Shown in pieces: positions 2,199 through 29,804 of a stretch of 64,000 bases of DNA (position 1 is the stretch's first letter; every line of letters starts with the position of its first letter). Below the pieces are notes generated by a model. It ran no database searches and was not told where the DNA came from. It saw only the letters and a program-made list of their open reading frames with translations. This DNA comes from Anaerolineae bacterium (GTDB taxonomy: Bacteria > Chloroflexota > Anaerolineae > Aggregatilineales > Phototrophicaceae): contig JALOOI010000001.1 of NCBI GenBank assembly GCA_025454495.1, forward strand, positions 18,415-82,414, in the 5' to 3' direction. A program made the translations under genes and the position numbers.

Positions 2199-3680
2199 TC
2201 AGCGCGTTTCCACCCCGGCGATCACCCGGAAGCCGATGGAGGCATAACGGGCGTTGGGCTTGAGGGACAGGCGCTGTGTGGTGCGAATGCGCTTGAACGG
2301 GCTGGAATAGGAGCCGCCGCGGATGATGCGTTCCGGCTGTTCGCCCTCGGCCAGTTTTTGCGCCGGGGTGCGGGCGGTGGCGCACCATTCCCAGATATTC
2401 CCGGCTAAATCCAGCACGCCGAAGGGGCTGGCCCCCTTCACAAAGCGCGTGACCGGCGTGGTGCGGCGGATTTTGCTATCGGCACAGTTGCACAGCAGCT
2501 TATCAAAGCGGTTGCCCCAGGGATACTGCCGCCCGTCATCGCCCTGGGCCGCCCGCTGCCACTCTGCGTCGGTCGGCAGGCCAATCTTCAGCCCGGTGCG
2601 GTCGCTCAGCCAGTTGCAAAACGCCTGCGCCTCGTACCACGACACATTTACCCGCGGATGATCGCCATAGGCCACGCGGTCTTTCAGCGCCTGGGGGTGG
2701 TAGCTGCGCCATTCACAGGCTTCTGTGGCGAAATCCCACCAGCGGGTATCGCAGTAGCCATCCGGCGCATCCACAAACATTTTAAACTGGGCATTGGTGA
2801 TGGGGTATTTGCTCATCTGGAACGCGGCCACATAGTGCGTCACCCGGCGCTGTTCATATTCCAGCGTCACTTCGCCGGCCGGAATCTGGCACCAGTCCAG
2901 CATGGGGATGAGCAGCCGCGCACACAGTCCGGCGATATTGTCCGGGTCATAATCCGGGTAGCGCTGGCGAAAGGACTGGAAGGCCATGCAGCCCAGGTCG
3001 CGCATTTTGGGGCTTTTCACCAGCGCCTGAATGGAACCATAGGAGCGAATGGCATCGCGCTGGTAAATGTGCTTTTCCAGCAGCCTTTCCACGTGGCGCA
3101 GCATTCGCTCCAGGCTGATGAAATCATCGCTGATCTTTTCTTCGATGGCCCGGCGCAGCAGAAACGCGGCAGCATCGTAATCGCCACGGTCGATCAAGGC
3201 GGTGGCGCGGAGGATAACATTATCCTGCGAGACCGTGGGCACCGTGTCATCTTCGTATACGTCCGGTTCATCGTCCCCGTTGAGCGGCCGCCCGCCGAAA
3301 AAGCTGCGTTCCGCCAGGGTGATGGCGTTCAGCAGTTCGCGCACGGCCTGCACCGTGATCCCTTTGCTAAAATCCACATACTGAATCTGGTTTAGCTCCG
3401 GCGACAGTTCACACGGCACAATCAACACCGGGAAGATGATTTTGCGGGCCGCCACCGCCCGCCGGTATTCTTTCTGGCAGTATTCGGATTTGAGCGAATC
3501 GGGCGAGAGCAGATACACAAAGCCTTCACTGTGGGCAATTTCACGGCAAATCTCGTTCCACCAGTTGCTGCCCACATACACGCGCTGGTCATACCACACA
3601 TCATGAGCATCTGCCAGCAGTTCAATCAGTTGCGTACAAAAGCCCTGGTCAACCCGTGCGTAACTGATGAAAAGTTTCAT
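2199..3680 (-). CDS. TIR domain protein fused to a C-terminal FGE-sulfatase (SUMF1 / formylglycine-generating-enzyme-like) domain
   Basis: The N-terminus reads KLFISYARVD...SPDSLKSEYCQKEY (a TIR_2-like FxSY start plus the S..S..C..E region that carries the conserved glutamate). The C-terminus reads RVNVSWYEAQAFCNWLS...GLPTDAEWQRAA...GNIWEWC...RGGSY...IGFRV, typical of the FGE-sulfatase fold. I start at internal Met MKLFISY (3680), not the ORF start 3728. Confidence 0.75.
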   Translation of the reverse strand: MKLFISYARVDQGFCTQLIELLADAHDVWYDQRVYVGSNWWNEICREIAHSEGFVYLLSPDSLKSEYCQKEYRRAVAARKIIFPVLIVPCELSPELNQIQYVDFSKGITVQAVRELLNAITLAERSFFGGRPLNGDDEPDVYEDDTVPTVSQDNVILRATALIDRGDYDAAAFLLRRAIEEKISDDFISLERMLRHVERLLEKHIYQRDAIRSYGSIQALVKSPKMRDLGCMAFQSFRQRYPDYDPDNIAGLCARLLIPMLDWCQIPAGEVTLEYEQRRVTHYVAAFQMSKYPITNAQFKMFVDAPDGYCDTRWWDFATEACEWRSYHPQALKDRVAYGDHPRVNVSWYEAQAFCNWLSDRTGLKIGLPTDAEWQRAAQGDDGRQYPWGNRFDKLLCNCADSKIRRTTPVTRFVKGASPFGVLDLAGNIWEWCATARTPAQKLAEGEQPERIIRGGSYSSPFKRIRTTQRLSLKPNARYASIGFRVIAGVETR

Positions 3681-3848
3681 AAGGTAATCCCTGCCGATAT
3701 ATCGCTGTGATATAGACCAGTATAGCACCGAACCGAAAGTATGCCGGCGGGTGCGGGTGGCCGGGGGATGATATTACGGGATTGTATGATCTGCGCCTCT
3801 CTGGTAGTCTGCGGCGAAATTCAGGCACCGCAGCCAGGGAGACCACCT

Positions 3849-4442
3849 GTGAGCAGCATCGAACTGACCACCGACCGTTTAATCATCCGGGAATACGGGC
3901 TGGCCGACCTGGAAGGGCGGCACCGGCTGATGCAGGAAGCCTTCGACAGCGACGATACGCCGGCGCAAACACAGCACTGGCTGGCGTGGACGATGGCCGG
4001 CTACACCGAACAGGCGCGGCTGTACCAGCCCCCGTATGGCGATTATGCTGTGGCCCGGCGCGATACGGGCCAGGTGGTGGGCACGGTGGGGCTGGTGCCT
4101 TCGCTCATCCCGTGGGGGGTGCTGCCCGAATTCCGGCGGATTGATGAAGGTGAAAATCATCTGGTGGTGCCGGAACCGGGTTTGTTCTGGGCCGTGCACA
4201 CCGCCCACCGGGGCTGTGGCTATGCCGCCGAAGCGGCCGCGGCGCTGGCGCAGTGGCTGTTTACCCGGCTGTACTTCCGGCGGGTGGTGGCCACCACGGC
4301 GGCGACCAACAGCGCCTCGCAGCGGGTGATGGCAAAACTGGGCATGGCGCTGTATCGCAATCCGGGAACAAAACCGGCCTGGTTCCAGGTGGTGGGGGTG
4401 TTGAACCATCCGGCCGAGCAGAACGTGTTTTACCACCGATGA
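3849..4442 (+). CDS. GNAT family N-acetyltransferase (RimJ/RimL-like)
   Basis: Acetyltransf_3-like profile (LIIREY...WAV...RGCGYAAEAAAAL). GTG start 3849 lies 7 nt after GGAG. Confidence 0.6.
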   Translation: MSSIELTTDRLIIREYGLADLEGRHRLMQEAFDSDDTPAQTQHWLAWTMAGYTEQARLYQPPYGDYAVARRDTGQVVGTVGLVPSLIPWGVLPEFRRIDEGENHLVVPEPGLFWAVHTAHRGCGYAAEAAAALAQWLFTRLYFRRVVATTAATNSASQRVMAKLGMALYRNPGTKPAWFQVVGVLNHPAEQNVFYHR

Positions 4443-5626
4443 TCGCGCGGCTGCGGGGCCCGGCCGGGCGGGCGCTGGCAGGCCGCCTGTGGCGGGGGCG
4501 CGGGTGGGCGGCCCGCCTGCTGCTGCTGCTGTGGCTGCTCAGCCTCATTCACCCTGCGCCGCCCCGCGCCATGCTGGAGGACCCGCAGACGGTCAGCACC
4601 ATGCAGCCGCTGCTGTGCGTGCATACCCGCTTCACCGATGAGGTGCATGAGTGGATCATCCAGCGATCCATGCAGCTTGTGCGCGAGATGGGCGCGGATA
4701 CCATCGTGGAATTTTTCCCCTGGGCCTATTTTGAGCCGCAGCCGGGCGCTTATCGCTGGGAGCGGGTGGATCTGGTCATGCGGCACGCCCGCAACCAGGG
4801 CTTAAAAGTGCTGGCCCGCATGGGCTTCGTGCCGGAGTGGGCCCGCCCGCCGGGGACGACGTTTAACGATCTGCCGGAGTCCTCTTATCCGGCCTTTGCG
4901 CGATTTGTGGCCGCCTTTGCCGCCCGCTACCCGGATGTGGTGCCGGGGGTGATCCTGTGGAATGAGCCAAACCTGGCGTTTGAATGGGGGTTTCGTCCGG
5001 TGGATGCGGCGGCCTACACCCGGCTGTTGCAGGTGGTGTATCCGGCGGTGCAGGCGGCCAGCCCCACGACGCTGGTGCTGGCCGGGGCGCTGGCCCCCAC
5101 GCTGGAGCCGCCCGGCAGCCCGGCCGGCCTCAACGATCTGCTGTATCTGGAAGCCATGTACCAGGCCGGGGCCGCCCCCTATTTTGACGCGCTGGCGGTG
5201 CATACCTATGGCTTTACACAGCCGCCGGCGGCCGACCCCGCGCCCGACGTGCTCAATTTTCGCCGGGTGGAACTGCTGCATGATGTGCTGCGGCGCTACG
5301 ATGACCCGGCCAAACCCGTCTACATCACCGAAAGCGGCTGGAACGATCATCCGCGCTGGACGAAAGCCGTGCGGCCCTCGCAGCGGGTGCAGTATACTGT
5401 GGATAGCTACCGCCTGGCCGCCGCCCGCTGGCCCTGGCTGGAAAAATTGTGCCTGTGGGCGTTTCGCTATCCACGCTTCACCTACAGCTACCCGGATAAT
5501 TTTATGATTGTGTCGGTGGGCTTTGAGCGCACGCCGCTGTATGAGGCGCTGCGGGCCCTGTCCCGCGGTACCGTGCTGGAGACGCAGTTATGGCTGCCCG
5601 CGCCCGCGCCCGCTGCTGGCCGTTGA
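4439..5626 (+). CDS. Glycoside hydrolase, clan GH-A (GH5/GH39-like), with an N-terminal signal/TM
   Basis: WNEPN (acid/base NEP motif) and ITESGW (nucleophile Glu) are present. ATG 4439 overlaps the GNAT stop (ATGA). The hydrophobic segment is LLLLLWLLSL. Confidence 0.65.
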   Translation: MIARLRGPAGRALAGRLWRGRGWAARLLLLLWLLSLIHPAPPRAMLEDPQTVSTMQPLLCVHTRFTDEVHEWIIQRSMQLVREMGADTIVEFFPWAYFEPQPGAYRWERVDLVMRHARNQGLKVLARMGFVPEWARPPGTTFNDLPESSYPAFARFVAAFAARYPDVVPGVILWNEPNLAFEWGFRPVDAAAYTRLLQVVYPAVQAASPTTLVLAGALAPTLEPPGSPAGLNDLLYLEAMYQAGAAPYFDALAVHTYGFTQPPAADPAPDVLNFRRVELLHDVLRRYDDPAKPVYITESGWNDHPRWTKAVRPSQRVQYTVDSYRLAAARWPWLEKLCLWAFRYPRFTYSYPDNFMIVSVGFERTPLYEALRALSRGTVLETQLWLPAPAPAAGR

Positions 5627-6378
5627 TCGCGCTGGGGGTGGCGGGGCTGCTGCTGGCGGCCGGGCTGGCCGCGCCGCAGCTTACGCCCGCGCTGCCGCCG
5701 GCGGTGGCCTTCCCGGCGGGCGTGCTGCGCGTGGGGGTGGATGCCAGTTTTCCCCCGTTTGCGCTGGATGAGGGGGGGACGCTGGCGGGCGTGGATATAG
5801 ACCTGGGGCAGGCTATCGCGGCCTATCACGGGCTGCCGGTGCGCTTTGTGCCCATCAGCTTTGATGCGCTCTACGATGCGCTGCTCACCGATCAGGTCGA
5901 TGTGTTGATTTCGGCGCTGCTGGTGAACCCGCTGCGGACGCAGGACGTGCGCTATACCCGCCCCTATTTTGATAATGGGCTGCGCCTGGTCAGCCCGGCG
6001 GCGGCCCCGCTGCCGGGCATGGCCGCGCTGCCGGGGCTGCGGCTGGCCTATGAATTTGGCGGCACCGCTGACAATGAAGCGCGGGCCTGGCTGCGCCGGG
6101 TGGACGATTTCGCCCTGCGACCCTATGAACTGCCACAGATTGCGCTGGATGCGCTGCGCGTTGGCGCGGCAGATGCCGCCCTGGTGGATGCCACCACGCT
6201 GGCCCTGTATCTGCGCCAGCAGCCGGGCTGGCCGGTGCAGGCGGTGCCGGTGACGCACGTCTTTTACGCGGCCGCCGTCCGGCTGGATCGCCCGGCGACG
6301 TTTGCCGCGGTGGATGGGGCGCTGGCCGCCCTGGCCGCCGATGGCACCCTGGCCCACATTTTGCGAAAGTGGTTGTGA
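5590..6378 (+). CDS. Solute-binding protein, family 3 (amino-acid ABC-type periplasmic binding domain), orphan
   Basis: Signal peptide plus an SBP_bac_3-like sequence. I see no adjacent permease or ATPase. Its start overlaps the glycoside-hydrolase 3' end. Confidence 0.55.
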   Translation: MAARARARCWPLIALGVAGLLLAAGLAAPQLTPALPPAVAFPAGVLRVGVDASFPPFALDEGGTLAGVDIDLGQAIAAYHGLPVRFVPISFDALYDALLTDQVDVLISALLVNPLRTQDVRYTRPYFDNGLRLVSPAAAPLPGMAALPGLRLAYEFGGTADNEARAWLRRVDDFALRPYELPQIALDALRVGAADAALVDATTLALYLRQQPGWPVQAVPVTHVFYAAAVRLDRPATFAAVDGALAALAADGTLAHILRKWL

Positions 6379-6380
6379 AG

Positions 6381-7493
6381 ATGGCGCATATCGGCATGGA
6401 TGTCCGGCTGACGTATTATCGCACCGGCGGCATCAGCAGCTATATTCGGGGGCTGGTGGGGGCGCTGGCGGCGCTGCCGGCCGCCAGCCCGCACCGCTGG
6501 ACGTTGTTCCACAGCCGTAAAGATGCCACCCGCCTGTCAGACCAGATGGCAGCGGCGGCGCTGTGGACTCCCGCGCATCATCGCTGGGAGCGCCTGGCGC
6601 TCGCGGTGGAACTGGCGCGGCACCGGCTGGACGTGCTGCACAGCCCGGATTTTATCCCGCCGTACCGCGGGGCCCGGCGGCACGTCATCACCGTGCATGA
6701 CCTGACCTTCCTGCATTATCCACAGTATCTCACGGCGGACAGCCGCCGCTATTACAACGCGCAGATTGCCGCGGCCGTGCGCCAGGCCGATCACATCCTG
6801 GCCGTCAGCGAAGCCACCCGGCAGGATTTGCTGGCGCTGCTGCACGTGCCGCCGGCGAAGATCACCGTCCAGCCGCACGGTGTCGGTGAGCAGTATCGCC
6901 CGCTGCCGGCCGCCGCCACGGAGCCGGCGCGGCAACACCTGGCGCTGCCGTCGCGCTATTTTTTGCATGTGGGCACCTGGGAGCCGCGCAAGAATATTCT
7001 GGGGCTGCTGCGGGCCTATGGCCGCCTGCTGCAAACCGTGCCGGACGCGCCGCCGCTGGTGCTGGCCGGCCAGCCTGGCTGGCTGTTCGAGGAAACGCAG
7101 GCCGGGGCGGCGGCGCTCCGGCTGCCGCCGGGTGCCGTCGTGTGGTGCGACCAGGTGACGGATGCGCTGCTGCCGGCCGTGTATAACCGGGCCGTGGCGC
7201 TGGTGTCGCCTTCGTTTTATGAAGGCTTCGGGATGCCCGCGCTGGAAGCCATGGCCTGCGGGGTGGTGCCCATCGTCAGCCATACGTCGTCGCTGCCGGA
7301 GGTGGTGGGGGAGGTGGGCCTGCTGATTGACCCGCAGGATGACGACAGCCTGACCGCGGCGTTGCAGCGCGTGCTGACCGATGATGACTGGCGCGACCGG
7401 CAGCAGCAGGCCGCCCGGCAGCGGGCGCAGCAGTTCACCTGGGCCCGGTCGGCCCGCATTGCGCTTCAGGTGTATGAGCAGGTGCTGGCTTAG
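6381..7493 (+). CDS. Glycosyltransferase family 4 (GT-B, Glycos_transf_1)
   Basis: The C-terminal EGFGMP...E motif region is typical of GT4. The start could be GTG 6369 or ATG 6381. Confidence 0.75.
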   Translation: MAHIGMDVRLTYYRTGGISSYIRGLVGALAALPAASPHRWTLFHSRKDATRLSDQMAAAALWTPAHHRWERLALAVELARHRLDVLHSPDFIPPYRGARRHVITVHDLTFLHYPQYLTADSRRYYNAQIAAAVRQADHILAVSEATRQDLLALLHVPPAKITVQPHGVGEQYRPLPAAATEPARQHLALPSRYFLHVGTWEPRKNILGLLRAYGRLLQTVPDAPPLVLAGQPGWLFEETQAGAAALRLPPGAVVWCDQVTDALLPAVYNRAVALVSPSFYEGFGMPALEAMACGVVPIVSHTSSLPEVVGEVGLLIDPQDDDSLTAALQRVLTDDDWRDRQQQAARQRAQQFTWARSARIALQVYEQVLA

Positions 7494-8362
7494 CGCCCGT
7501 CGTGGCTGGAATCGGGGTCGCGCAGTTCGTCCGATTCCTGCAAATTATCGTCCATCGCATCGTTAATTTCGCCGGCTGCCGGCCCCGGCGGGTGAAAGAC
7601 CACCGGGCGCGACGCGAACTGGCTTTCTGGCGCGGGGCGGCTAAAACGATCATCGCCGGCGGCCGCGGCGGTGCTGCGCGGCAGCCGGCACAGGAAGCGC
7701 GAGCCTTCGCCGGGTGTGCTGCTCACGCTGATGTCGCCGCCGTGCCGTTCCAGGACGGCTTTCACGATGGCCAGGCCCAGCCCGCTGCCTTCGATGCTGT
7801 CGCCGCCGCGCCGTTTGACGCGGTAAAAATGATCGAAAATATGCGGCAGGTCTTTCGCGTCGATGCCGATGCCGGTATCGCGCACTTCCACCACAATCTG
7901 CGTTCCCTCCGGGCGGGCGCTGACGTAAACCGCGCCGCCTTCGCGGTTGTATTTGATGGCGTTGCTGAGCAAATTGGTAAAAACGTGGCTCAGCATTCGG
8001 GCATCGCCCTGCACCGGGCTGAGGTCAGCCGGCAGGTCAACATGCAGGCTGATGTGGCGGCGGCGGGCCAGTTCTTCCAGCAGCAGCACGGCATCCTCAA
8101 TCAGGGTGGCCAGCGGGCAGTCCGTGATGTGCAGCGCTTTTTCGGCCCCCAGGCGGGCGTAATCCAGCAGTTCATTGATGATGTTTTCCATGCGGCCCAG
8201 CGCCATCAAGGACCGATTGAGCAGCACGCGCTGGCGCTCATTCAGCTCGCCGGAATGCTCCATCAGGTCAATAAAGCTTTTCGCCGCTGCCAGAGGGGTC
8301 TTCAGGTCATGGGCGAAGGTATTGAACAGATCAAAATCGTGGCTGGCATCGGTTCCGAACAC
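7490..8362 (-). CDS. Cytoplasmic sensor histidine kinase (HisKA + HATPase_c) with no recognisable sensor domain or TM
   Basis: H-box FAHDLKTPL, N-box NLLSNAIKY, G1 DTGIGI, G2 GSGLGLAIV. It converges on the GT4 gene with a 4-nt overlap. Confidence 0.8.
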   Translation of the reverse strand: MFGTDASHDFDLFNTFAHDLKTPLAAAKSFIDLMEHSGELNERQRVLLNRSLMALGRMENIINELLDYARLGAEKALHITDCPLATLIEDAVLLLEELARRRHISLHVDLPADLSPVQGDARMLSHVFTNLLSNAIKYNREGGAVYVSARPEGTQIVVEVRDTGIGIDAKDLPHIFDHFYRVKRRGGDSIEGSGLGLAIVKAVLERHGGDISVSSTPGEGSRFLCRLPRSTAAAAGDDRFSRPAPESQFASRPVVFHPPGPAAGEINDAMDDNLQESDELRDPDSSHDGR

Positions 8363-8365
8363 GCC

Positions 8366-9256
8366 TTACTCCCCGGATTTGAGCAGCAGCGGCAACTGCT
8401 GCATGGCATAAGCGATGCGCGTGCCGTGCCAGGTGAGCAGCGAACCATCCACCAGGTGAATGCGGCCGTGGTGGGCGGCGGGCACATCCAGCGCGGCGAA
8501 CAGCGGCACATGTTCGTCGGTGAACAGGAACGGCTCGGACGGCAGCAGGATGACCTCCGGCTGCGCGGCAGTCACTTCCGCCAGGGTGATGCGCGGGTAG
8601 CGGGTATCGCGCCCGGCCCGGCGCGGGTCATCGGCGGCGTAAGGCGCGGCCGTGCCCAGGTCGGCGGCCAGCGGGTAGCGGCGCTCGCGGTCAGCGAAGA
8701 TGTTGCTGCCGCCGCACAGCCGCAGCACGTCATGGGCATAGGTATCGGCGTTAAAGGTCATCAGCGGGTCATGCCAGATGGGCACAAACACCCGCAGCGG
8801 GGCCAGCGCGGCCCGTTCCTCGGCGATGGTGTTCAGCCAGTCAAACGTATACTCAATCATGCGAATGCGATGGCTCATCTCCGTCACTTCGAACAGCGCC
8901 ATCGTATTCCACAGCAGGGTAAAGACCTCGCTCACCGTGCGCGGAAACGTCTCCCACACCGCGATACCGGCCGCCGTCAGCGCGTCGGCATCCTCTTTGC
9001 GGTTTTCCTCCCGGTTGACGATGACCAGTTCCGGCCGCAGGGCGATGATTTGTTCCAGCCGCGGGTTTTTGGTGCCGCCCACCGTCGGAATCGCGTCCAC
9101 CTGCCCGGCCGGATAAAGGCAATAATCGGTGCGGCCGATGATGCGCCCGCCCAGGCCCAGGTCGAACAGCGATTCGGTCATGCTGGGCACAAGCGAAATC
9201 ACCGTCTGCGGCGGGTGATCGATGGGGGCATCGTGGGCAAAGGGCTGGCTGCTCAT
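8366..9256 (-). CDS. BtuF/TroA-like (class III) periplasmic-binding-protein fold, cobalamin/siderophore-binding family, without a signal peptide
   Basis: Peripla_BP_2-like profile with no hydrophobic N-terminus. Its stop is 3 nt upstream of the histidine-kinase start. Confidence 0.55.
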   Translation of the reverse strand: MSSQPFAHDAPIDHPPQTVISLVPSMTESLFDLGLGGRIIGRTDYCLYPAGQVDAIPTVGGTKNPRLEQIIALRPELVIVNREENRKEDADALTAAGIAVWETFPRTVSEVFTLLWNTMALFEVTEMSHRIRMIEYTFDWLNTIAEERAALAPLRVFVPIWHDPLMTFNADTYAHDVLRLCGGSNIFADRERRYPLAADLGTAAPYAADDPRRAGRDTRYPRITLAEVTAAQPEVILLPSEPFLFTDEHVPLFAALDVPAAHHGRIHLVDGSLLTWHGTRIAYAMQQLPLLLKSGE

Positions 9257-10539
9257 AGCGTAATCATCTGGCGGCGTTCCGGCCCCACGCTGACCATCGT
9301 CACCGGCACTTCCACCAGTTCGGCGATGCGCTCCAGGTAGCGCCGCGCAGCGGGTGGCAGGTCGGCGGCGTGGCGCACCCCGGAGAGGTCGGTGTGCCAG
9401 CCGGGCAGCGTTTCATAAATCGGGATCACCCGGTCAAGATCGTCGGTGGTGGGGGGCGGGTAGTCCAGCCGCTGCCCCTGATACTCGTAGGCCACCGCCA
9501 CCGGCAGTTCCTCAAAGCCGCTGAGGACATCCAGCTTGGTGAGGGCCAGTTCGGTGTAGCCATTCACCGCGGCCGAATAGCGCAGCATGACCGTATCCAG
9601 CCAGCCGCAGCGGCGCGGCCGCCCGGTGGTGGTGCCGAATTCGTCCCAGTAATTGGCCCCGGTGCCGCGCAAACGGTCGCCGATGGCGTTAGCCTGTTCG
9701 GTGGGCATGGGGCCGCTGCCCACGCGCGTGCTGAAGGCTTTGGCAATGCCCACAATGCGGTTGATGTGCAGCGGGCTGACCCCCAGGCCGGTGAGCGCCC
9801 CGCCCACCGTGGGCGAGGAACTGGTGACGAAAGGGTAGCTGCCGTGGTCAATGTCCAGCAGTGTGCCCTGGGCCCCCTCGCCGATGACGGTTGCGCCGGC
9901 CTTCAGGCGGTGATGCAGGTAAATGGCGGTCTCCTGGATGAAGGGTTGCAGCGTTTGCGCCGCCGCCAGGTAGTCCGGCACGCTGGCGCGGGCATCCAGC
10001 GGGGCAAAGCCGCCGCGCACCAGGTCCGCGCTGGCGCGTTCGATGGCGCTGTGCAGCGCATCGCCAAAGGCTTCTAAATCCAGCATTTGGCCCACGCGCA
10101 GCCCATCGCGCGAGGTTTTATCCATATACGCCGGGCCGATGCCGCGCAGGGTGGTGCCGATAGCTTCCGCCCCGCGTGCCTGTTCGCTGGCCCGGTCGCG
10201 GGCAATGTGCGCCGGCGTGATGAGGTGCGCCCGTGAACTGAGCACCAGGTTCTCCGGGGTGATGCTCACGCCCATGTCCCGGAGCTGGTTGATCTCTTTG
10301 ACCAGATTCACCGGGTTCACCACCATGCCATTGCCCATGACGGACACCACGCCCGGATGCAGCACCCCGGAGGGAATGAGATGCATTTTATAGACGGTGC
10401 TGCCAACGGCGACCGTGTGCCCGGCATTATCACCGCCGGCGTAACGGGCGACGATGTTCGCGTCAGCGGCCAGTGCGTCCACAAAGCGGCCTTTGCCTTC
10501 GTCGCCCCACTGTGCGCCGATAAGGACTGTGATCGGCAT
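9253..10539 (-). CDS. purA: Adenylosuccinate synthetase
   Basis: GDEGKGR and GGDNAGHTV motifs. Start at internal Met MPITVL with GGGGGAA upstream. The longer ORF extension was rejected. Confidence 0.9.
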   Translation of the reverse strand: MPITVLIGAQWGDEGKGRFVDALAADANIVARYAGGDNAGHTVAVGSTVYKMHLIPSGVLHPGVVSVMGNGMVVNPVNLVKEINQLRDMGVSITPENLVLSSRAHLITPAHIARDRASEQARGAEAIGTTLRGIGPAYMDKTSRDGLRVGQMLDLEAFGDALHSAIERASADLVRGGFAPLDARASVPDYLAAAQTLQPFIQETAIYLHHRLKAGATVIGEGAQGTLLDIDHGSYPFVTSSSPTVGGALTGLGVSPLHINRIVGIAKAFSTRVGSGPMPTEQANAIGDRLRGTGANYWDEFGTTTGRPRRCGWLDTVMLRYSAAVNGYTELALTKLDVLSGFEELPVAVAYEYQGQRLDYPPPTTDDLDRVIPIYETLPGWHTDLSGVRHAADLPPAARRYLERIAELVEVPVTMVSVGPERRQMITL

Positions 10540-10615
10540 GATTCCCCCATGAACCGCGTCATCAAACGGGGGCGCTGTGTGTGCCCCCGCCAGAGTATAC
10601 CACAAACTAAACGGG

Positions 10616-11272
10616 CTATGACGCATCCTGATAGCTGCTGCCCAGGCTGATCGTCACCTGGCCCAGCCCCCAGGTTTCCAGTTCGCCGCGACCGCCCAGG
10701 CACAGCGCCGACCCCGCGCCAATTTCAATGGAGATGGCCTCCGGCAGTTGCTGCAATACGGCCTGCACCGCCCGCGAGTCGTCCGCGCCGGTGACACCGG
10801 GTTCCATAAACGCACTTTTCACCCAGTCCAGCCCCGGCAGCAGGTCGCCGCTGTCGGCCAGGGCCCAGGTGCCAAAGAGGTTGATGGCCAGCCCTTCCAC
10901 CAGGATCAGCGCCCCGCGATCATACGCGGCCTGGAGGCCGGCCAGCGCCGCCCCCCGCAGCAGATGATGCAGCGTATTCACATGGTCATCGGTCTCAATG
11001 ACGATGAGGCTGGCTTCGGCAAGCTGCTTTTCCACCGCGGCCGGCGTTTCCTGTTCCAGGTTCAGCACGTAGCCGGCCAGCGCTCCCAGGTCTTCTAAAT
11101 CCTCCTGCAGCGCTTCGCCGCCATCCTGCGCCAGTGACAGATAAATCACGCTGTCGCCGACCCCGGCGCGGGCCAGGGCCCGGGCCCGCAGCGGGCTGCC
11201 GTCACTCTCGCCGCCGGAAAAAACCAGCCAGCCGCTGCCATCCTGCCAGTGCAATAATCCTCTGGATGGCAT
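10616..11272 (-). CDS. Class I glutamine-amidotransferase-like / peptidase S51 (dipeptidase E/cyanophycinase)-like protein
   Basis: LVFSGGESDGS...LIVIETDDHVN...LILVEGLAINLFG resembles an S51/DJ-1-like fold. Start at internal Met 11272, which avoids overlap with the upstream gene. Confidence 0.4.
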   Translation of the reverse strand: MPSRGLLHWQDGSGWLVFSGGESDGSPLRARALARAGVGDSVIYLSLAQDGGEALQEDLEDLGALAGYVLNLEQETPAAVEKQLAEASLIVIETDDHVNTLHHLLRGAALAGLQAAYDRGALILVEGLAINLFGTWALADSGDLLPGLDWVKSAFMEPGVTGADDSRAVQAVLQQLPEAISIEIGAGSALCLGGRGELETWGLGQVTISLGSSYQDAS

Positions 11273-11276
11273 GGCT

Positions 11277-12461
11277 TTACCCCGGCAGCAGGTAATCCGC
11301 GACGGCCGCCGAGAGCAGGGCCACGCCCATGGGCAGCGCGTCTTCATCAAAGTCGAAGCGCGGGTGATGATGCGGGTAATCAAGCTGGCGGGCGCTGTTG
11401 CCCGACCCCAGGAAGAAGAACATGCCGGGAATATCGGTCATGAACAGGCCGACATCTTCCGCGCCCATGGTGCGCTCATAGCGGAAGTCCGCCGCCGGGT
11501 AGCCCAGGCGTTCCGCCACCTGGCGCACTTTCTGCGCCACGTCAGGATGGTTGATGACCGGCTCCGTCTGGTGATTGGTGACGACTTCCACCGCGCAGCC
11601 CATGGCGGTGGCCACGCCGAAGGCAATTTCGCGCAGGCGGCGGTCGATCAGCTCGCGCATGTCCGGCGTAAAGGTGCGGAATGTGCCGTTAAGGAAGGCC
11701 GTGGACGGGATGACGTTGTGCGTCGTGCCGCTGTGAATCTGGGTGACGGAGACCACCGCGGTATCCAGCGGGTTGGCGTTGCGGCTGACGATGGTTTGCA
11801 GCGCCGTGACCAGGTGCGCCGCGCACACCACCGGGTCAACCGCCAGGTCGGGGACTGCGCCATGCCCGCCTTTGCCGGTGAGGGTGATGGTAAAATCGGA
11901 CGAGCCGGCCATCACCGGCCCTTCGGCCACGCCCAGCGTGCCGGCGGGCATGTTGTTCCACAGGTGCAGCCCCAGGCTCACCAGCGGGCGCGGGCTGTGC
12001 AGCGCCCCATCGGCGATCATGGCTTTCGCCCCGCTGGCGATTTCTTCCGCCGGCTGAAAGACGAATTTCACCCGGCCCACCAGCCGGTCGCGGTGGGCGG
12101 ACAGCAGTTTGGCCACGCCCATCCCGATAGCCGTATGGCCATCGTGCCCGCAGGCGTGCATTTTGCCGGCCGTCTGCGAGGCATACTCCACCTGGTTTTC
12201 TTCGGTCATGGGCAGCGCGTCCATATCGGCCCGCACCAGCACCGTGGGGCCGTCGTGCGGCCCCTCCAGGATGCCCACCACGCCGGTTTGGCCCACGCCG
12301 GTTTGCACTTCCAGCCCCAGGCGGGTGAGATAGTCGGCCACGATGCCGGCGGTACGCACTTCTTCAAAGGCCAGTTCCGGGTGGCGGTGAAAATCGCGCC
12401 GGATGGCGACCAGTTCCGGGCGGAGCGCTTCTGCCTGTGTTTTAAAATCAACCTGGCTCAT
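11277..12461 (-). CDS. M20D family amidohydrolase (N-acyl-L-amino acid amidohydrolase / hippurate hydrolase-like)
   Basis: HACGHDGH metal-binding motif and M20 architecture. Confidence 0.8.
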   Translation of the reverse strand: MSQVDFKTQAEALRPELVAIRRDFHRHPELAFEEVRTAGIVADYLTRLGLEVQTGVGQTGVVGILEGPHDGPTVLVRADMDALPMTEENQVEYASQTAGKMHACGHDGHTAIGMGVAKLLSAHRDRLVGRVKFVFQPAEEIASGAKAMIADGALHSPRPLVSLGLHLWNNMPAGTLGVAEGPVMAGSSDFTITLTGKGGHGAVPDLAVDPVVCAAHLVTALQTIVSRNANPLDTAVVSVTQIHSGTTHNVIPSTAFLNGTFRTFTPDMRELIDRRLREIAFGVATAMGCAVEVVTNHQTEPVINHPDVAQKVRQVAERLGYPAADFRYERTMGAEDVGLFMTDIPGMFFFLGSGNSARQLDYPHHHPRFDFDEDALPMGVALLSAAVADYLLPG

Positions 12462-12494
12462 AAATCGTCTATCCTCATCCTGTGTGACGGCGGT

Positions 12495-13214
12495 TTAACC
12501 CGGTAGCTGGATCAGCCGGAATTGTTCAATATAACGCGGCGCATCCGGCGGCGACTGTGGATCCACAGCCCGCTGACGCAGGCGCTCGGCCATCGCTGCC
12601 ATATCCGCGATCTGGCTTTTGTGTTCGTGCAGGGAGCGAATGCGCGTTTCCAGCGTCTCGCTGATGTCGATTTTGACGGTCGGTTCGGCCGCCCCGGCAA
12701 TATAAACGGTGAGGACTTTATGCGGGGCCAGCCCTTCATCCCGCGCCTGCTCCGGGAAGTTCAGCCAGTCGCGGGCGGTGGGGTAGATGGCCTCCAGCGT
12801 GGCCGCGCCGATGGCCCGGTGATCGGGATGATTGATGGCGCGGGTTTCGTACCAGAAGACGGTCGGATCCAGCGTGACGATGGTATCCGGCTGCTTCAGG
12901 CGGATGAGGCGCGTCAGGTCGCGGCGCAGTTCCAGCGTGGGGAACAATTCGCCATCGCGGTAGCGCAGGAAGATCACCTCCTGCACGCCCAGGACGGCCG
13001 CCGCGGCCCGTTCTTCGTCTTCACGCAGTTGCATCAGCCGTTCCGGGGTCATGTCCGGGTCGGCGCTGCCTTTGTCGCCACTGGTGGCCACCACCAGCGT
13101 CACGGCGGCCCCGCCATGGGCCCAGCGGGCCAGCGTGCCGCCGGCGAAGAAAGAGGCATCATCCGGGTGGGCGAACACGCCCATGATGCGGCGGGCGGAA
13201 AACTCTGCGGTCAT
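12495..13214 (-). CDS. PIG-L/LmbE family N-acetylglucosaminyl deacetylase
   Basis: AHPDDA motif, ...HPDH..., LmbE-like length. Confidence 0.75.
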   Translation of the reverse strand: MTAEFSARRIMGVFAHPDDASFFAGGTLARWAHGGAAVTLVVATSGDKGSADPDMTPERLMQLREDEERAAAAVLGVQEVIFLRYRDGELFPTLELRRDLTRLIRLKQPDTIVTLDPTVFWYETRAINHPDHRAIGAATLEAIYPTARDWLNFPEQARDEGLAPHKVLTVYIAGAAEPTVKIDISETLETRIRSLHEHKSQIADMAAMAERLRQRAVDPQSPPDAPRYIEQFRLIQLPG

Positions 13215-13238
13215 GGTGCCTCTCCGGCCGGGTGCGGG

Positions 13239-14237
13239 TTAATCGTCGTCTTCGTCGTCGTCAGCGGCCGCGCCGGCGGCCGGCTGCTGGTCAGCGCGGC
13301 GCTCGCCTTTGGGCTTGCCACAGTCGCAGGGTTCATCGCCGTGCTTGCTACAGGGTTCTTTGGCGGCTTTGGCCAGCGCTTTCAGCTCATCCAGCGGCAC
13401 AATCTCCTCGCGCTGGACGATCTTCACGCCCACTTCTTCGATCAGCACACTGACGGCATCCTTCAGCGGATGCACATCAATCACTTTGCCTTCGCCGAAG
13501 GGCGTGCCCACGCGCTTGTTGCGGCGCGGCAGTTCCTTGCGGGCGGCCACGTACTGCTCATATTCATACACCAGGCAGCAGCGCAGCCGGCCGCACATGC
13601 CGGTAATCTCCGACGGGTTGAGCGAAATGCCCTGCGCCTTGGCCATCTTGATGGAGATGGGGCTAAAATCGGTGAGGAAGGTGCTGCAACAGCGATCCCC
13701 CCCGCACGCGCCAAACCCACCGAGCAGCTTGGCGACATCACGCGGGCCCACCTGGCGAATATCCACCTGGGCGGTAAATTCGCGCTGGAGCGCGTTGCGC
13801 AGCCGGCTGGTATCCACCCGGTCTTCGGCGCTGAACAGAAACGTCAGCACGGAGCCATCGTAGTTATACTGCGCGGCGACGAAGCGGGCATCCTCCAGCC
13901 CGCCCATTTGCCGGGCTTTTTGCTGGCACGTTTCCAGCGCTGTCCCCTGGCGGCTTTCCCATTCCTGGCGCAGGGCCAGGTCACGCGGGGTGGCCGGGCG
14001 CAAAATGGCGCGGTATTCACGGTCTTTTTCCATCGGCGTAAAGCCCATGATCTGCCCCATTTGCCGCCCGCGCAGCGTCTGGACGATCACATAATCGCCG
14101 TTTTTCAATGTGGTATGACCGGCACAATCGAAATGATATAATTTGCCGATCTTCGTAAAACGGACTCCGGCGGCCATCGGCGTGCCGGCCGGCACCGGTT
14201 CAGCAGCAGCATCAGTCGTTAGCGGCAGGTCTACCAT
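13239..14237 (-). CDS. ricT: PSP1 C-terminal domain protein (RicT/YaaT-like) with an acidic C-terminal tail
   Basis: Conserved SLNPSEITGMCGRLRCCL block of the PSP1/YaaT family, followed by cysteine-rich and DDDEDDD tails. Confidence 0.65.
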   Translation of the reverse strand: MVDLPLTTDAAAEPVPAGTPMAAGVRFTKIGKLYHFDCAGHTTLKNGDYVIVQTLRGRQMGQIMGFTPMEKDREYRAILRPATPRDLALRQEWESRQGTALETCQQKARQMGGLEDARFVAAQYNYDGSVLTFLFSAEDRVDTSRLRNALQREFTAQVDIRQVGPRDVAKLLGGFGACGGDRCCSTFLTDFSPISIKMAKAQGISLNPSEITGMCGRLRCCLVYEYEQYVAARKELPRRNKRVGTPFGEGKVIDVHPLKDAVSVLIEEVGVKIVQREEIVPLDELKALAKAAKEPCSKHGDEPCDCGKPKGERRADQQPAAGAAADDDEDDD

Positions 14238-14403
14238 ACGCTTCCCTTAAAGCCAGTGAGGCATACATCGTGGACAACTGTACTGAAAAAGCCCCCGAAA
14301 AGCAATGTTGCCTGCACGGATCGTTATGGCGCTGTGCCGAATTTGCTATAATGATACGTCGGAAAACTCTGGTTCGCGGTACATCCTGCGGGTGGCGTGG
14401 TTT

Positions 14404-15813
14404 ATGTCAACACTGGTGATGAAATTTGGTGGTTCGTCCGTGGGGACGACGATTGCGCTGACGCAGCTTTTGAGCATCGTGCTGCATGAGCGCCGGCATC
14501 ATGATAATTTGCTGTTGATTGTTTCGGCGCTGGATGGCGTGACGGATATGCTGCTGGAGGCGGCCCACCTGGCGCAGGTGAACAACCAGCGCGGCTACCG
14601 GCGCATTGCTGCCACCCTGCGTACCCGGCATATGTCGCTGGTGGAACAACTGCCCCTGGGGTCGCAGGAGCGCAGCACTTTGCAGGCCGATATTGACCGG
14701 CTGCTGTTTGAAATGCTGGATGTGTGCCAGAGCATTGCCCATACGCCATCGATTGCGCTGCCGCCGGAGGCCAGCGATGTGATTGCGGCGGTGGGGGAGC
14801 GCCTGTCCGCCCGCATCATTGCGGCGCTGCTGCGGCAAAATGACCTGCGCGGCGTGGCCATTGATGGCACCGATGTCGTCATCACCAGCGCGGTGCATGG
14901 CAATGCCGCGCCGGATATTGAACTCACGCGGGAACGGGTGCGCCAGCATTTGCTGCCCATGCTGGCCAGCAACATCATTCCGGTGGTGACGGGCTTCATC
15001 GGCGCGACTCCGCGCGGCAAAACCACCACCATGGGCCGCGGCGGCAGCGATTACAGCGCTTCCGTGCTCAGCCTGTGCCTGGCGGCCGATGAACTGTGGA
15101 TCTGGTCGGATGTGGATGGCATGATGACCACCGACCCGCGCGAGATCGAAGAGGCGCGGGTGATTGAGGAATTATCCTACAACGAAGTGGCGGAACTGGC
15201 CTATTTTGGGGCCCGCATTTTGCATTCGCGCATGATCCAGCCATTGAAAGAACGCAGCATCGTGTTACGCATCAAAAATGTTTACAAGCCGCAGCAGCCC
15301 GGCACCGTCATTCGCCATACCACCGGCGACAGCCCGCCGCGCCTGAAGGCGGTGACGATGATTCAGGGCATCGGGCTGATGGCCGAACGCAGCGGGGCCC
15401 TGGCCGATATTACCCGCCTGGTGGATGAAACGCTGTTCCAGACTTCCGGCAGCCATGCCGATGTGATGCTGTCGTCGCAGTCGTCCGCCCGCAGTTTTTT
15501 GTGCTTCATCGTGCCCACCAGCGCCGGGCTGGAGGCGGTGGATATGATTCGCAATGCGCTGCGCCAGCGCCTGCTGAATGCCGACCCGGCCCTGGCCGGC
15601 TGGACGGTGCAGCCGCTGAGCGTGGTGACGGCCATTGGCGAAAATTTAGACACCTTCCCGGCGCTGACGGGGCAGGTCTTCGCGGCGCTGCACGGCATTC
15701 GCATTCTGGGGCTGGCGCAGGGGCCGTCACGGTGCAGCCTGTCGGTGGTGGTTGACCCGCAGGATGCCGAGGCCACGCTGCGCCAGATGCACGCGCTGGC
15801 GCTAAGCCGCTAA
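14404..15813 (+). CDS. lysC: Aspartate kinase with C-terminal ACT domains
   Basis: VMKFGGSSVG N-terminal kinase motif. The start could be ATG 14404 or ATG 14419. The 3' end overlaps glnA by 4 nt (convergent). Confidence 0.85.
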   Translation: MSTLVMKFGGSSVGTTIALTQLLSIVLHERRHHDNLLLIVSALDGVTDMLLEAAHLAQVNNQRGYRRIAATLRTRHMSLVEQLPLGSQERSTLQADIDRLLFEMLDVCQSIAHTPSIALPPEASDVIAAVGERLSARIIAALLRQNDLRGVAIDGTDVVITSAVHGNAAPDIELTRERVRQHLLPMLASNIIPVVTGFIGATPRGKTTTMGRGGSDYSASVLSLCLAADELWIWSDVDGMMTTDPREIEEARVIEELSYNEVAELAYFGARILHSRMIQPLKERSIVLRIKNVYKPQQPGTVIRHTTGDSPPRLKAVTMIQGIGLMAERSGALADITRLVDETLFQTSGSHADVMLSSQSSARSFLCFIVPTSAGLEAVDMIRNALRQRLLNADPALAGWTVQPLSVVTAIGENLDTFPALTGQVFAALHGIRILGLAQGPSRCSLSVVVDPQDAEATLRQMHALALSR

Positions 15814-17835: not shown

Positions 17836-17907
17836 TGCCCCTGACAGGAATCGAACCTGTGCCTCTGCCTCCGGAGGGCAACGCTCTATCCGCTGAGCTA
17901 CAGGGGC
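17836..17907 (-). tRNA. tRNA-Arg (anticodon CCG)
   Basis: 72-nt cloverleaf folded by hand: acceptor GCCCCTG/CAGGGGC, D-arm GCTC-AGCGGATA-GAGC, anticodon stem TTGCC/GGCAG with loop CTCCGGA, T-arm ACAGG-TTCGATT-CCTGT, discriminator A. CCA is not encoded. Confidence 0.85.
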
Positions 17908-28241: not shown

Positions 28242-29756
28242 CTACATAAGGCCATTTTCGGCATAGGCAATCGCGGCGGCCAGGGCCCGCGCCTTGTTCA
28301 CACTCTCCTGGTGCTCGTATTCCGGCTCACTATCGGCCACGATGCCCGCGCCGGCCTGCACATACACGGTATCGCCGCGCACCAGGAAGGTACGAATGGT
28401 GATGCACATATCCATGGAGCCATCAAAGCTGAAGTAGCCCACCGCGCCGCCGTAGTGCCCCCGGCGCACGCCTTCCAGTTCTTCGATGATCTCCATGGCC
28501 CGCACTTTGGGCGCACCGCTGAGCGTGCCGGCCGGGAAGGTGGCCCGGATGAGATCAAAGGCGTTCATGGTGGGGCGCAGCCGGCCCTCCACATGGCTGA
28601 CGATGTGCATCACATGTGAATAGCGTTCCACCACCATCATTTCCGTCACTTTCACGGTGCCATAGTCACACACGCGCCCCAGGTCATTACGCCCCAGGTC
28701 AACCAGCATCACATGTTCGGCGCGTTCTTTGGGGTCGGCCAGCAGGTCAGCGGCATGGGACTGGTCTTCTTCCTCGGTGCGGCCGCGCGGGCGGGTGCCG
28801 GCGATGGGCCGGGTGCTGGCGATGCCATCTTCAAAGCGCACCATCATCTCCGGCGAGGCACCCACCAGGGTTAAATCATCGTTGAAGCGCAGCAGGAACA
28901 TATACGGCGAGGGATTGAGCGCCCGCAGCGCCCGGTACAGCATCAGCGGGGAGGCGCTGGTCTGGCGGCTGAAGCGCTGCGACATGACCACCTGGAATAC
29001 ATCGCCATTGCGGATGTACTCTTTGGCCGCCTGCACATTCTGGCAAAAGGCGGCCTGGCCAATGTTGGAGACCAGTTCGGCGTTCAGCGGGCGAATATCG
29101 GCATCCAGCGGCGGCAGGGGGTTGCCCAGGGCCACCACCACCCGGTCAATGCGATGCACGGCCTCATTGTAGGCGGCATCCGGGCTGCCGCGGTTAAAGG
29201 CATTGGCCAGCACGATGAGCTGGTGTTTGGCGTGGTCAAAGATGATGAGCGTATCCGGGATCATGAAAGCGGCATCGGGCAGATGCAGGTCATCGCGGGC
29301 GGTGGCGGGCAGTTTTTCAAAATAGCGCACAGCATCATAGGCCAGGTAGCCCACTGCGCCGCCCACCAGGCGCGGCAGCCCCGGCACGCGCACCGGGTGA
29401 TACTGCGCCAGCGCGGCCTGCACCACGCTCAGCGGGTCTTCGTCCGGCGACAGCGGGCGGGTGGTGGTTTTGCCGCCGCTGGTTTCGGTGAACTGGTTGT
29501 CCTGCACCAGCAGCACGGTGCCGGGGTTAACCCCGATGAAGGAATAGCGCCCCACGCGCTCGCCGCCTTCCACCGATTCCAGCAGAAAAGACGGCTGGCC
29601 GTCGGCGGTGAGCTTCAGGTAGACTGAAACCGGGGTTTCCAGGTCGGCCAGCAGGGTGCGATACACAGGCACCAGGTCGCCCTGCTGAAAATAGCGATGT
29701 ACGTCCTCGCGCGCGGGTTTAATGTCGGTGCGGATGCGGGTTGCCGGTGCGGCCAT
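28242..29756 (-). CDS. trpE: Anthranilate synthase component I
   Basis: TrpE/chorismate-binding profile. Start at internal Met 29756, with GGGAGGGAG 5-13 nt upstream. Confidence 0.9.
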   Translation of the reverse strand: MAAPATRIRTDIKPAREDVHRYFQQGDLVPVYRTLLADLETPVSVYLKLTADGQPSFLLESVEGGERVGRYSFIGVNPGTVLLVQDNQFTETSGGKTTTRPLSPDEDPLSVVQAALAQYHPVRVPGLPRLVGGAVGYLAYDAVRYFEKLPATARDDLHLPDAAFMIPDTLIIFDHAKHQLIVLANAFNRGSPDAAYNEAVHRIDRVVVALGNPLPPLDADIRPLNAELVSNIGQAAFCQNVQAAKEYIRNGDVFQVVMSQRFSRQTSASPLMLYRALRALNPSPYMFLLRFNDDLTLVGASPEMMVRFEDGIASTRPIAGTRPRGRTEEEDQSHAADLLADPKERAEHVMLVDLGRNDLGRVCDYGTVKVTEMMVVERYSHVMHIVSHVEGRLRPTMNAFDLIRATFPAGTLSGAPKVRAMEIIEELEGVRRGHYGGAVGYFSFDGSMDMCITIRTFLVRGDTVYVQAGAGIVADSEPEYEHQESVNKARALAAAIAYAENGLM

Positions 29757-29775
29757 AAGCTCCCTCCCATGAATC

Positions 29776-29804
29776 AAAAAGCCCTTACAGACTGCTGCAA
29801 GGAC
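29776..29804 (-). terminator. Intrinsic terminator of the T-box leader
   Basis: Minus-strand GUCCUU-(12-nt loop)-AAGGGC followed by UUUUU, immediately 3' of the T-box sequence and about 20 nt before the trpE ATG. Confidence 0.5.

Follow-up and report, generated by a model that had tools for sequence, protein, structure and literature searches.

A 64-kb window, by which we mean the whole 64,000-nucleotide stretch analysed here, from a contig of a filamentous bacterium of the Chloroflexota (Anaerolineae), carries on its minus strand (2199..3680) a complete gene for a protein of 493 amino acids that combines, on one chain, an N-terminal TIR domain, a TPR-like helical domain and a C-terminal domain of the FGE-sulfatase family, which has a C-type-lectin-like fold and is also referred to as FGS. 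We propose that this protein is a single-chain cytoplasmic sensor-effector, in which the lectin-fold FGS domain would be the sensor and the TIR domain the effector, and which would work without the usual nucleoside triphosphatase (NTPase) switch. On the evidence set out below we place this proposal somewhat on the probable side of even.

Gene and protein architecture

The gene is one unbroken open reading frame (ORF) with an ATG start and a stop codon at 2199-2201, and the encoded N-terminus reads MKLFISYARVD. The call draws on the ORF list, on Pfam, on a database protein that is 100% identical (P0001) and on a gene call made independently by JGI for the same protein. An alternative in-frame GTG at 3728 would add 16 N-terminal residues; however, the ATG is the likely start and the GTG an unlikely one, since homologues begin M-[RK]-L-F (119 homologues) and the JGI call likewise gives 493 aa.

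Pfam recognises two domains: TIR_2 (PF13676; aa 4-117) scores 85.8 bits against a cut-off of 28 (E=4.1e-24), and FGE-sulfatase (PF03781; aa 267-487) scores 152 bits against a cut-off of 23.3 (E=2.5e-44). An earlier note made from the sequence alone had anticipated this when it described a single TIR_2 and FGE-sulfatase fusion. Both domains are present in 120 of the 120 best database matches; nearly all of these are 43-58% identical to the query over 99-100% of its length, and they are ~485-530 aa long. Because at least 119 full-length homologues share the two domains, the fusion is not a frameshift artefact, a possibility that the same note had raised, and its suggestion that the fusion be sought in related genomes leads to a large full-length family in Chloroflexota. 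An alignment of 119 of these homologues was used for conservation analysis and for modelling.

The resulting AlphaFold2 model (mean predicted local distance difference test score (pLDDT) 92.2; predicted template modelling score 0.70) has four parts, namely the TIR domain (aa 1-128), a linker (aa 129-154), a five-helix domain (aa 155-257) and the FGE-type domain (aa 263-489). Since β-strand A begins at residue 2 of the model, the protein is predicted to be cytoplasmic, with neither a signal peptide nor a transmembrane segment. The TIR domain is the most highly conserved of the domains (mean pairwise identity 0.57), the corresponding value for the FGE-type domain being 0.50. The GC content at third codon positions is 0.74 for the gene as a whole and 0.65 for its TIR part, against 0.78-0.85 in most neighbours; this difference is mild and not decisive, and a foreign origin on grounds of composition was set aside. 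A promoter and terminator scan around the gene gave nothing beyond shuffled expectation.

The TIR domain and the TPR-like domain

The TIR_2 domain (aa 1-117; 3330..3680, minus strand) is assigned from Pfam, from the predicted fold, in which the last helix is stretched to aa 128, and from matches to TIR profiles. It is modelled as a TIR α/β fold with pLDDT >90 except in the BB-loop region at aa 31-40 (pLDDT 73), a loop that in the monomer model carries the invariant G37, W40 and W41. The residues F4, W29, I44, S59, S65, C68 and E71 are likewise invariant in the 119 homologues, and the last four of these belong to the motif S59-x2-S62-x2-S65-x-Y67-C68-x2-E71. Here E71 (codon 3468..3470, minus strand, in Y67-C68-Q-K-E71) is the predicted catalytic glutamate; its presence at the catalytic position had been pointed out in the earlier note and is borne out by its invariance in 119/119 homologues.

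Compared with solved structures, the family TIR profile gives weak matches (E=1e-5 to 1e-4) to Cat1, a CRISPR-associated TIR protein (E=1.4e-5), to a TIR-TPR protein (9m0n) and to SPARTA TIR-APAZ. The "C-q-k-E" of the family is aligned opposite "WCwdEL" of Cat1 and "vlKEL" of TIR-APAZ, so that E71 lies opposite the Glu of Cat1 and that of TIR-APAZ, which by chain count is residue 77; we take E77 to be the catalytic residue of SPARTA TIR-APAZ. Judged from its sequence, the TIR domain looks catalytically intact and may be regarded as putatively NAD+-cleaving, and it is because the catalytic-position Glu is retained that we consider the TIR domain to be an enzymatic output.

The TIR domain is followed by an acidic, variable linker (aa 129-154; 3219..3296, minus strand) with pLDDT 53-60, the lowest conservation and many indels, and then by the TPR-like domain (aa 155-257; 2910..3218, minus strand), which has five helices and in which Y214, D245 and P246 are invariant. 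It had been thought at the outset that the TIR domain was joined directly to the FGE domain; the two are indeed on the same chain, but the TPR-like domain between them had been overlooked. There is no P-loop or NACHT Pfam match in the protein, and the place where an NTPase might be looked for is taken by these five helices, which probably contribute to assembly or autoinhibition.

The FGE-type domain as a putative binding module

Pfam, Foldseek and an alignment with FGE all place the C-terminal domain (aa 263-489; 2214..2894, minus strand) in the FGE-sulfatase family. Its Foldseek neighbours are CalU17, SUMF2, ToxD, FGE, EgtB and TvpA (E=1e-17 to 1e-13, with E ~1e-16 against FGE structures), and the NCBI name of the protein is "SUMF1/EgtB/PvdO family nonheme iron enzyme". 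The strength of the PF03781 match, a similarity of fold that extends to OvoA and PvdO, and the NCBI name could together be taken to indicate an enzyme of the SUMF1/EgtB/PvdO type to which TIR has been added as a regulatory element. We find this very improbable and largely refuted by the residues that such chemistry needs. The Cu(I)-binding Cys pair (C-x4-C; human C336/C341), on whose fate the earlier note had placed some weight, is lost: where Streptomyces coelicolor FGE reads 'GGSYlchDSYCnRYR' the present protein reads 'GGSY---SSPFKRIR', so that a deletion removes the position of the first Cys and F462 stands at that of the second, and 84/119 homologues have no Cys in this segment.

EgtB, OvoA and SenA depend on a DinB-like domain at the N-terminus, in which three His residues form the iron site. 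The 493-aa protein contains no such domain; what precedes its FGE-type domain is TPR-like and not DinB-like, and has no conserved His, so that the His triad is absent as well. NCBIfam enzyme models score the protein at 40-78 bits against cut-offs of 350-500, those for EgtB, OvoA and SenA reaching 70.8-77.9 bits against cut-offs of 360-420, and no sulfatase, ergothioneine or pyoverdine genes are found among the first 25 of the 74 Pfam families of the window. The missing Cys residues, the missing DinB/His domain and the scores below cut-off led us to reject an identity as FGE, EgtB, OvoA or PvdO, and the database name is misleading because both the Cu-binding Cys residues and the DinB/His domain are absent. 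The domain is thus best read, from its sequence, as a non-enzymatic binding module and not as an enzyme of a known kind. Among its fold neighbours, pFGE/SUMF2 and TvpA (2y3c), a receptor of a diversity-generating retroelement (DGR), are catalytically inert.

The most variable segment of the whole protein is a hypervariable, indel-rich loop within this domain (aa 434-452; 2325..2381, minus strand; mean conservation 0.26, entropy 3.27 bits), and this loop is a candidate for the specificity-determining surface. C-type lectin (CLec) domains of the FGE type are classic DGR targets and many FGS domains of conflict systems are DGR-linked (PMC7159879, PMC10907252). Together with TvpA as a structural neighbour, this brings up the alternative of a receptor in which hypermutation by a retroelement diversifies the C-terminal lectin fold. 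We regard this as extremely improbable for the present gene. No template-like direct repeat in the 64 kb is paired with the 3' end of the gene, and a sensitive blastn search gave at best 36 nt at 78% identity; the window has no match of the reverse transcriptase type in PADLOC, which is presumed to hold models for reverse transcriptase defence systems; and the sequence of the domain is nearer to the enzyme-type FGE/EgtB/ToxD than to TvpA. Nor is there a reverse transcriptase family among the conserved neighbours in 80 related loci, these being the best of more than 566 related stretches from a scan of species-representative genomes and the sample to which our locus counts refer. With neither a template-like repeat nor a match of the reverse transcriptase type in the window, a DGR target within it was rejected.

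Family, relatives and modular layout

The best 80 related loci are all in metagenome-assembled genomes (MAGs) of Chloroflexota (Anaerolineae, Aggregatilineales, Phototrophicaceae). TIR_2 is found on 67/71 of their FGE-bearing ORFs, and on one the adaptor domain EAD8 stands in the place of TIR. Several genomes hold more than one TIR-FGE copy, and tandem duplicates occur at L002 8531-11461 (two), L035 9390-12574 (two) and L050 9791-13667 (three).

The N-terminal part of the protein also exists apart from the FGE-type domain. The TIR and TPR module occurs as a stand-alone protein of ~280-370 aa and with other C-termini, namely a cold-shock domain, an FtsK-gamma winged helix, Ham1 and SH3_3 (P0134, P0127, P0159, P0161). 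An exhaustive HMMER search with aa 1-262 as the query gave 112 representatives at E<=1e-30. The whole module is covered in 64 of the 150 HMMER matches listed, and 53/64 are of 485-650 aa, the size of a TIR-TPR-FGE protein. Of the remaining close TIR matches listed, roughly half are very large proteins in which 3-7 TIR_2 domains in tandem are often followed by WD40 β-propellers and no NTPase was detected; examples of these (TIR)n-WD40 proteins are P0163 (1773 aa, seven TIR_2 stretches and WD40), P0214 (1468 aa) and P0183 (841 aa), and there are ~70 more. Among plasmids the best match is WP_341472294.1 of Candidatus Chlorohelix allophototropha, a TIR_2-NACHT-FGE protein of 1055 aa that is encoded among toxin-antitoxin and integrase genes; both its ends show homology to the window protein (FGE 32% identity, E=1e-39; TIR 27%, E=3e-7). 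No full-length TIR-FGE was found on viral contigs, phages or plasmids, and a mobile or phage-borne origin of the gene was discarded on this basis.

In a neighbour-joining tree the family falls into two sister clades, A, which includes the window protein, and B, together with more divergent paralogues. No genome among the 80 loci holds both a clade-A and a clade-B copy, and for this reason the two clades may be orthologous.

Clade B and the possibility of a partner

In clade B (~22 loci) the TIR-FGE gene immediately follows, in the same orientation, a gene for a TIR_2-NACHT-HEAT protein of ~1300 aa. In five loci the two genes overlap by 4 nt, and in most of the remaining ones they are 3-52 nt apart; the clade-B gene is translationally coupled to the TIR-NACHT-HEAT gene. 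A subset of these operons goes on to add a 171-aa protein without a Pfam match and a second NACHT protein (~805 aa). The operon is found in Phototrophicaceae/Anaerolineae MAGs (L026, L032, L033, L043, L048, L049 and L051, at ~6000-14900 in each), with further loci at L017, L018, L020, L021, L028, L034, L042 and L046, and in the literature we did not find it described as a named system.

This arrangement raises an alternative that the earlier note had not considered, in which the protein is a component and does not stand alone. As an accessory sensor or adaptor it would dock through TIR-TIR contacts to a TIR-NACHT-HEAT protein of the STAND (signal transduction ATPases with numerous domains) type, which would supply the NTPase switch in trans; the lineage of the window would have lost this partner or would encode it at another place in the genome. 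The immediate coupling of the two genes, the operons that hold a second NACHT protein as well, and the possible orthology of clades that do not co-occur among the 80 loci are all consistent with such a role, and anti-phage operons with two TIR genes do exist (BcTir/Tpr, bioRxiv 10.1101/2023.05.26.542521). On the other hand, no TIR, NACHT or HEAT gene other than the present one is found in the window, nor <=10 kb away in 16 clade-A loci; clade A has been long retained without a TIR-NACHT-HEAT neighbour; and the invariant catalytic Glu speaks for an enzyme over a passive adaptor. Weighing these points, we think a component role for the window protein rather unlikely.

Clade A and the core genome

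Genes of clade A occupy a fixed site, where they are divergent to a glycoside hydrolase (GH)-like gene that is followed by genes for SBP_bac_3, two family 4 glycosyltransferases (GT4), GT9, ParA-like and NFACT proteins. The divergent intergenic gap is 100-180 bp in 11/14 loci. Pairwise identity of the clade-A TIR-FGE proteins tracks that of the GH and GT4 proteins (Spearman 0.72 and 0.69, for pairs that are not independent), the mean values being 55% for TIR-FGE, 66% for GH and 61% for GT4, and this co-divergence agrees with vertical inheritance in which TIR-FGE changes somewhat faster than they do. Downstream of the clade-A gene the genes are variable and ordinary (solute-binding proteins, ABC transporters, M23 peptidases, histidine kinases), with no defence or mobile genes in 16 loci.

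The window itself gives a similar picture. Its ORFs match purA, topA, glnA, trp genes, murJ, ftsW/rodA, dprA and ffh (Pfam), and no mobile element and no further TIR, NACHT, HEAT or FGE gene was seen in the 64 kb. A PADLOC batch scan of 57 window ORFs reported no defence system, which agrees with the early impression that no other defence genes were present. There were single-protein matches to ShosA (E=3e-67), PsyrA (2e-36), DpdF (9e-17) and PDC-M43B (4e-7), with no partner genes detected; those to ShosA and PsyrA are most plausibly DprA cross-hits, since the window encodes a genuine DprA (Pfam DNA_processg_A, E=5e-76). On the PADLOC, Pfam and domain searches of the window ORFs, the 493-aa gene is solitary within a core chromosome.

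It may therefore be asked whether the protein serves immunity at all. As a housekeeping or developmental regulator it would use the lectin-fold domain to sense an endogenous glycan, an envelope precursor or a peptide, and its TIR domain to tune NAD+ or ADP-ribose (ADPR), possibly in filament physiology or programmed cell death. The fixed site divergent to genes of glycan metabolism, the co-divergence with them, the core genome in which the gene is embedded and the ordinary genes downstream are as such a role would predict, and the moderate conservation of the FGE domain would suit a constant ligand. However, the conserved block extends over >=10 kb and takes in the unrelated ParA-like and NFACT genes, so that adjacency to glycan genes may be plain synteny. 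Moreover, the sister clade and distant relatives are found in STAND/TIR conflict contexts, and the expansion and tandem duplication of paralogues are typical of conflict genes. We consider a non-immune role decidedly unlikely.

Proposed mechanism and its standing

We return to the proposal of a single-chain sensor-effector. The C-terminal FGE-type domain, with the chemistry of FGE/EgtB/OvoA lost, would bind a ligand; by analogy, this could be a protein from the invader or a glycosylated molecule. Binding of ligand would gather the TIR domains, with the TPR-like domain assisting, and the gathered TIR domains would form a composite NAD+-cleaving site. NAD+ would then be depleted, or an ADPR-derived signal made, and the infected cell would be stopped within its filament. 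We infer the NADase activity, the activation driven by oligomerisation, the nature of the ligand and the role in defence.

Several lines of evidence support this proposal in addition to the retained Glu. The layout of the family is modular, with swappable C-termini, EAD8 swapped for TIR and (TIR)n-WD40 relatives that are free of an NTPase; paralogues are expanded and tandemly duplicated within genomes; and FGS has been predicted to be an invader sensor paired with TIR (PMC8195603, PMC7159879, PMC13581612). The family is tied to conflict systems by the coupling of clade B to TIR-NACHT-HEAT and by the plasmid TIR-NACHT-FGE protein that is homologous at both ends.

There are also points that weigh against it. 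The protein has no NTPase or second-messenger-binding domain that would provide the activation switch, and in PADLOC nothing beyond its TIR domain is matched, and that weakly (E ~1e-5). A fixed core-chromosome site and co-divergence with housekeeping neighbours, as seen for clade A, are atypical of a defence gene, and to these may be added the lack of defence or mobile genes downstream in the 16 loci and of full-length matches on viral contigs, phages and plasmids. Rapid diversification of the sensor is not evident, because the FGE-type domain is fairly conserved apart from its one loop. CLec domains of this kind are described as being without experimental characterisation (Doré et al., 2024; PMC10907252). 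It is the fixed housekeeping locus of clade A, together with the coupling of clade B, that leads us to allow that the protein may be a component or no defence gene. The compact sensor(FGE)-effector(TIR) protein suggested in the earlier note is nevertheless the explanation best supported by these data, at the slightly better than even standing given above.

A further extension of the proposal may be mentioned. The TIR-TPR-lectin protein, maintained by vertical descent in the core genome of filamentous Chloroflexota, might be a minimal cytosolic pattern receptor, free of both partner and NTPase, that is built on the same plan of ligand-binding domain and TIR as Toll-like receptors and in which the C-type-lectin-like domain directly gates a putative TIR NADase; its position beside envelope-glycan genes would then reflect surveillance of a self or invader glycan or glycosylated molecule, with control over the death of filament cells. 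We put this forward tentatively and regard it as doubtful.

Other features of the window

The immediate flanks of the gene are ordinary, as had first been noted. On one side are two SGNH/GDSL hydrolases in tandem on the plus strand (250-1323 and 1287-2192; Pfam), which are paralogous and share DNA segments of ~70% identity, the first having a Pro/Thr-rich linker at ~420-560; a homologue was seen in one related locus only (L045). On the other side is a GNAT acetyltransferase (3741..4442, plus strand; Pfam), a lineage-specific insertion into the conserved divergent intergenic gap that is missing from all 80 related loci, yet present in a 4.3-kb JGI contig (L081). A functional link to the GNAT or SGNH neighbours was rejected, neither being conserved in related loci. 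Beyond the GNAT gene come the conserved divergent neighbours of clade A, the GH-like, SBP_bac_3 and GT4 genes (4544..7493, plus strand), which were defined by tblastn synteny in 14-17 loci, ORF clustering and Pfam, and which serve here as context only. The GT4 gene at 6369-7493 (plus strand) has a secondary match to GT4-conflict (PF20706, 43 bits, cut-off 26) as against 94 bits for Glycos_transf_1, and the former is probably a within-clan cross-hit.

Elsewhere in the window there is a tRNA gene at 17836-17907 (minus strand; Rfam, 70.3 bits) and a T-box leader at 29796-30055 (minus strand; 98.9 bits, gathering score 93), which lies upstream of the ORF at 28242-29915. The Pfam families of the window include anthranilate synthase and further members of the trp pathway, and together with the leader they suggest a T-box-controlled trp operon. 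Three tandem repeats of 87 nt, 84-90% identical, at 39655-39918 encode a repeated 'PPPAQRPLSDYDNITFDPPP' motif at the C-terminus of an apparently membrane-spanning 562-aa protein (ORF 39574-41262, minus strand). Degenerate direct-repeat families rich in ACC/CCG codons, at ~420-560, 33880-34260, 34870-34990 and 51400-51600, appear to encode Pro/Thr-rich linkers in several proteins, which are probably secreted.

Significance and comparison with known systems

Bacterial immunity resembling that of NOD-like receptors is predicted to have two main "antigen-receptor" classes, of which FGE-type (FGS/CLec) domains form one, and the literature cited here reports no ligand or activity for any FGS/CLec sensor domain. 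A soluble protein of 493 aa that couples such a domain to a TIR domain, with no NTPase in the chain and no DGR or partner in the 64 kb, could be the simplest available system in which to study the ligands of lectin-fold sensors and the switching of TIR domains, with NAD+ cleavage as the read-out. The analysis also corrects the misleading database name "nonheme iron enzyme" and documents the TIR-NACHT-HEAT and TIR-FGE operon and the (TIR)n-WD40 proteins in filamentous Chloroflexota, a phylum that is poorly covered by catalogues of defence systems. The core-genome behaviour of a TIR protein was unexpected and is of secondary value as a finding.

The closest comparison is with proteins in which a STAND NTPase is combined with FGS. 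In the conflict systems of multicellular bacteria, FGS domains have been described as modules that are always found at the C-terminus (Kaur et al., 2020; PMC7159879), and it was later proposed that, in [TIR/EAD/other effector]-STAND-FGS proteins, this lectin-fold domain senses invaders inside the cell (Kaur et al., 2021; PMC8195603, section 7). For the NACHT proteins of bacteria, FGS and HEAT/TPR/LRR have been listed as the two C-termini of the antigen-receptor type (Kibby et al., 2022, bioRxiv), and a 2026 Nature paper counts FGE-sulfatase sensors among STAND sensors (PMC13581612). The window protein has the N-terminal TIR_2 and the C-terminal PF03781 of this group, in the same order as WP_341472294.1 and in the same host phylum. 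Unlike them it has no NTPase, a TPR-like domain of ~100 aa standing at the place of NACHT, no DGR (template repeat or reverse transcriptase) in the 64 kb and no defence or mobile context, the gene being chromosomal and vertically inherited. It thus resembles STAND-FGS proteins in its proposed working, yet is not a member of the group, since the central NTPase is absent.

A direct fusion of a putative lectin-fold sensor to TIR without an NTPase is known for NPCBM, which has been found fused straight to TIR and adjoining AP-ATPase-TPR genes (Kaur et al., 2021; PMC8195603, section 7). The sister clade of the window protein similarly adjoins a STAND gene, whereas its own clade has no STAND neighbour; its sensor is a C-type-lectin-like FGE domain as opposed to the discoidin-like NPCBM, and its hosts are Chloroflexota and not Actinobacteria.

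An N-terminal TIR with a C-terminal sensor is also the plan of SPARTA TIR-APAZ with its short prokaryotic Argonaute (pAgo), of Cat1 (CARF-TIR) and of TIR-SAVED, and in Cat1 and TIR-APAZ, which among solved structures give the best profile matches to this TIR domain, the Glu is aligned with that of the present family. Activation by induced TIR assembly is established for SPARTA, Cat1, TIR-SAVED and SARM1. The sensors of the first three, however, bind nucleic acids or cyclic oligonucleotides and their partners are pAgo, CRISPR type III and CD-NTase, whereas the window protein has a lectin-fold domain as its sensor and no partner encoded nearby. With Thoeris there is in common a TIR_2/ThsB-like domain with the conserved Glu, although the matches are weak (ThsB in PADLOC, E=6e-5; ThcB4 in NCBIfam, 21.6 bits against a cut-off of 220), and the window has neither a gene for ThsA, the SIR2/SLOG or Macro/TM effector that adjoins ThsB in Thoeris, nor one for another signal-activated effector. 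As the PADLOC matches are weak and confined to TIR, and the whole-window scan gave no ThsA match, Thoeris and other named PADLOC systems were rejected.

With FGE, pFGE (SUMF2) and EgtB/OvoA the protein shares the fold and Pfam family of aa 263-489, and like pFGE/SUMF2 it is without the catalytic cysteines. It differs from FGE, EgtB and OvoA in lacking the Cu-binding Cys pair and the DinB-like iron domain, and in being cytoplasmic and fused to TIR. BcTir/BcTpr of Bacillus cereus, a two-gene system with experimentally demonstrated anti-phage activity (bioRxiv 10.1101/2023.05.26.542521), likewise combines TIR-type NAD+-cleaving chemistry, which is only predicted here, with a TPR module; it is likened by description only, and it differs in consisting of two proteins with long TPR arrays and no lectin-fold domain, in Firmicutes.

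The earlier note had not recognised the architecture as a named system. This holds in so far as we found neither a named TIR-FGE system nor a TIR-TPR-FGS family lacking an NTPase described in the text of the literature, although figures or source data may hold one. It does not extend to the idea itself or to the rarity of the protein, for the family is large in Chloroflexota and the lectin-fold FGS sensor paired with TIR had already been predicted (PMC7159879, PMC8195603). What is new here is the form that this pairing takes, which is free of an NTPase, not linked to a DGR and stably maintained on the chromosome.

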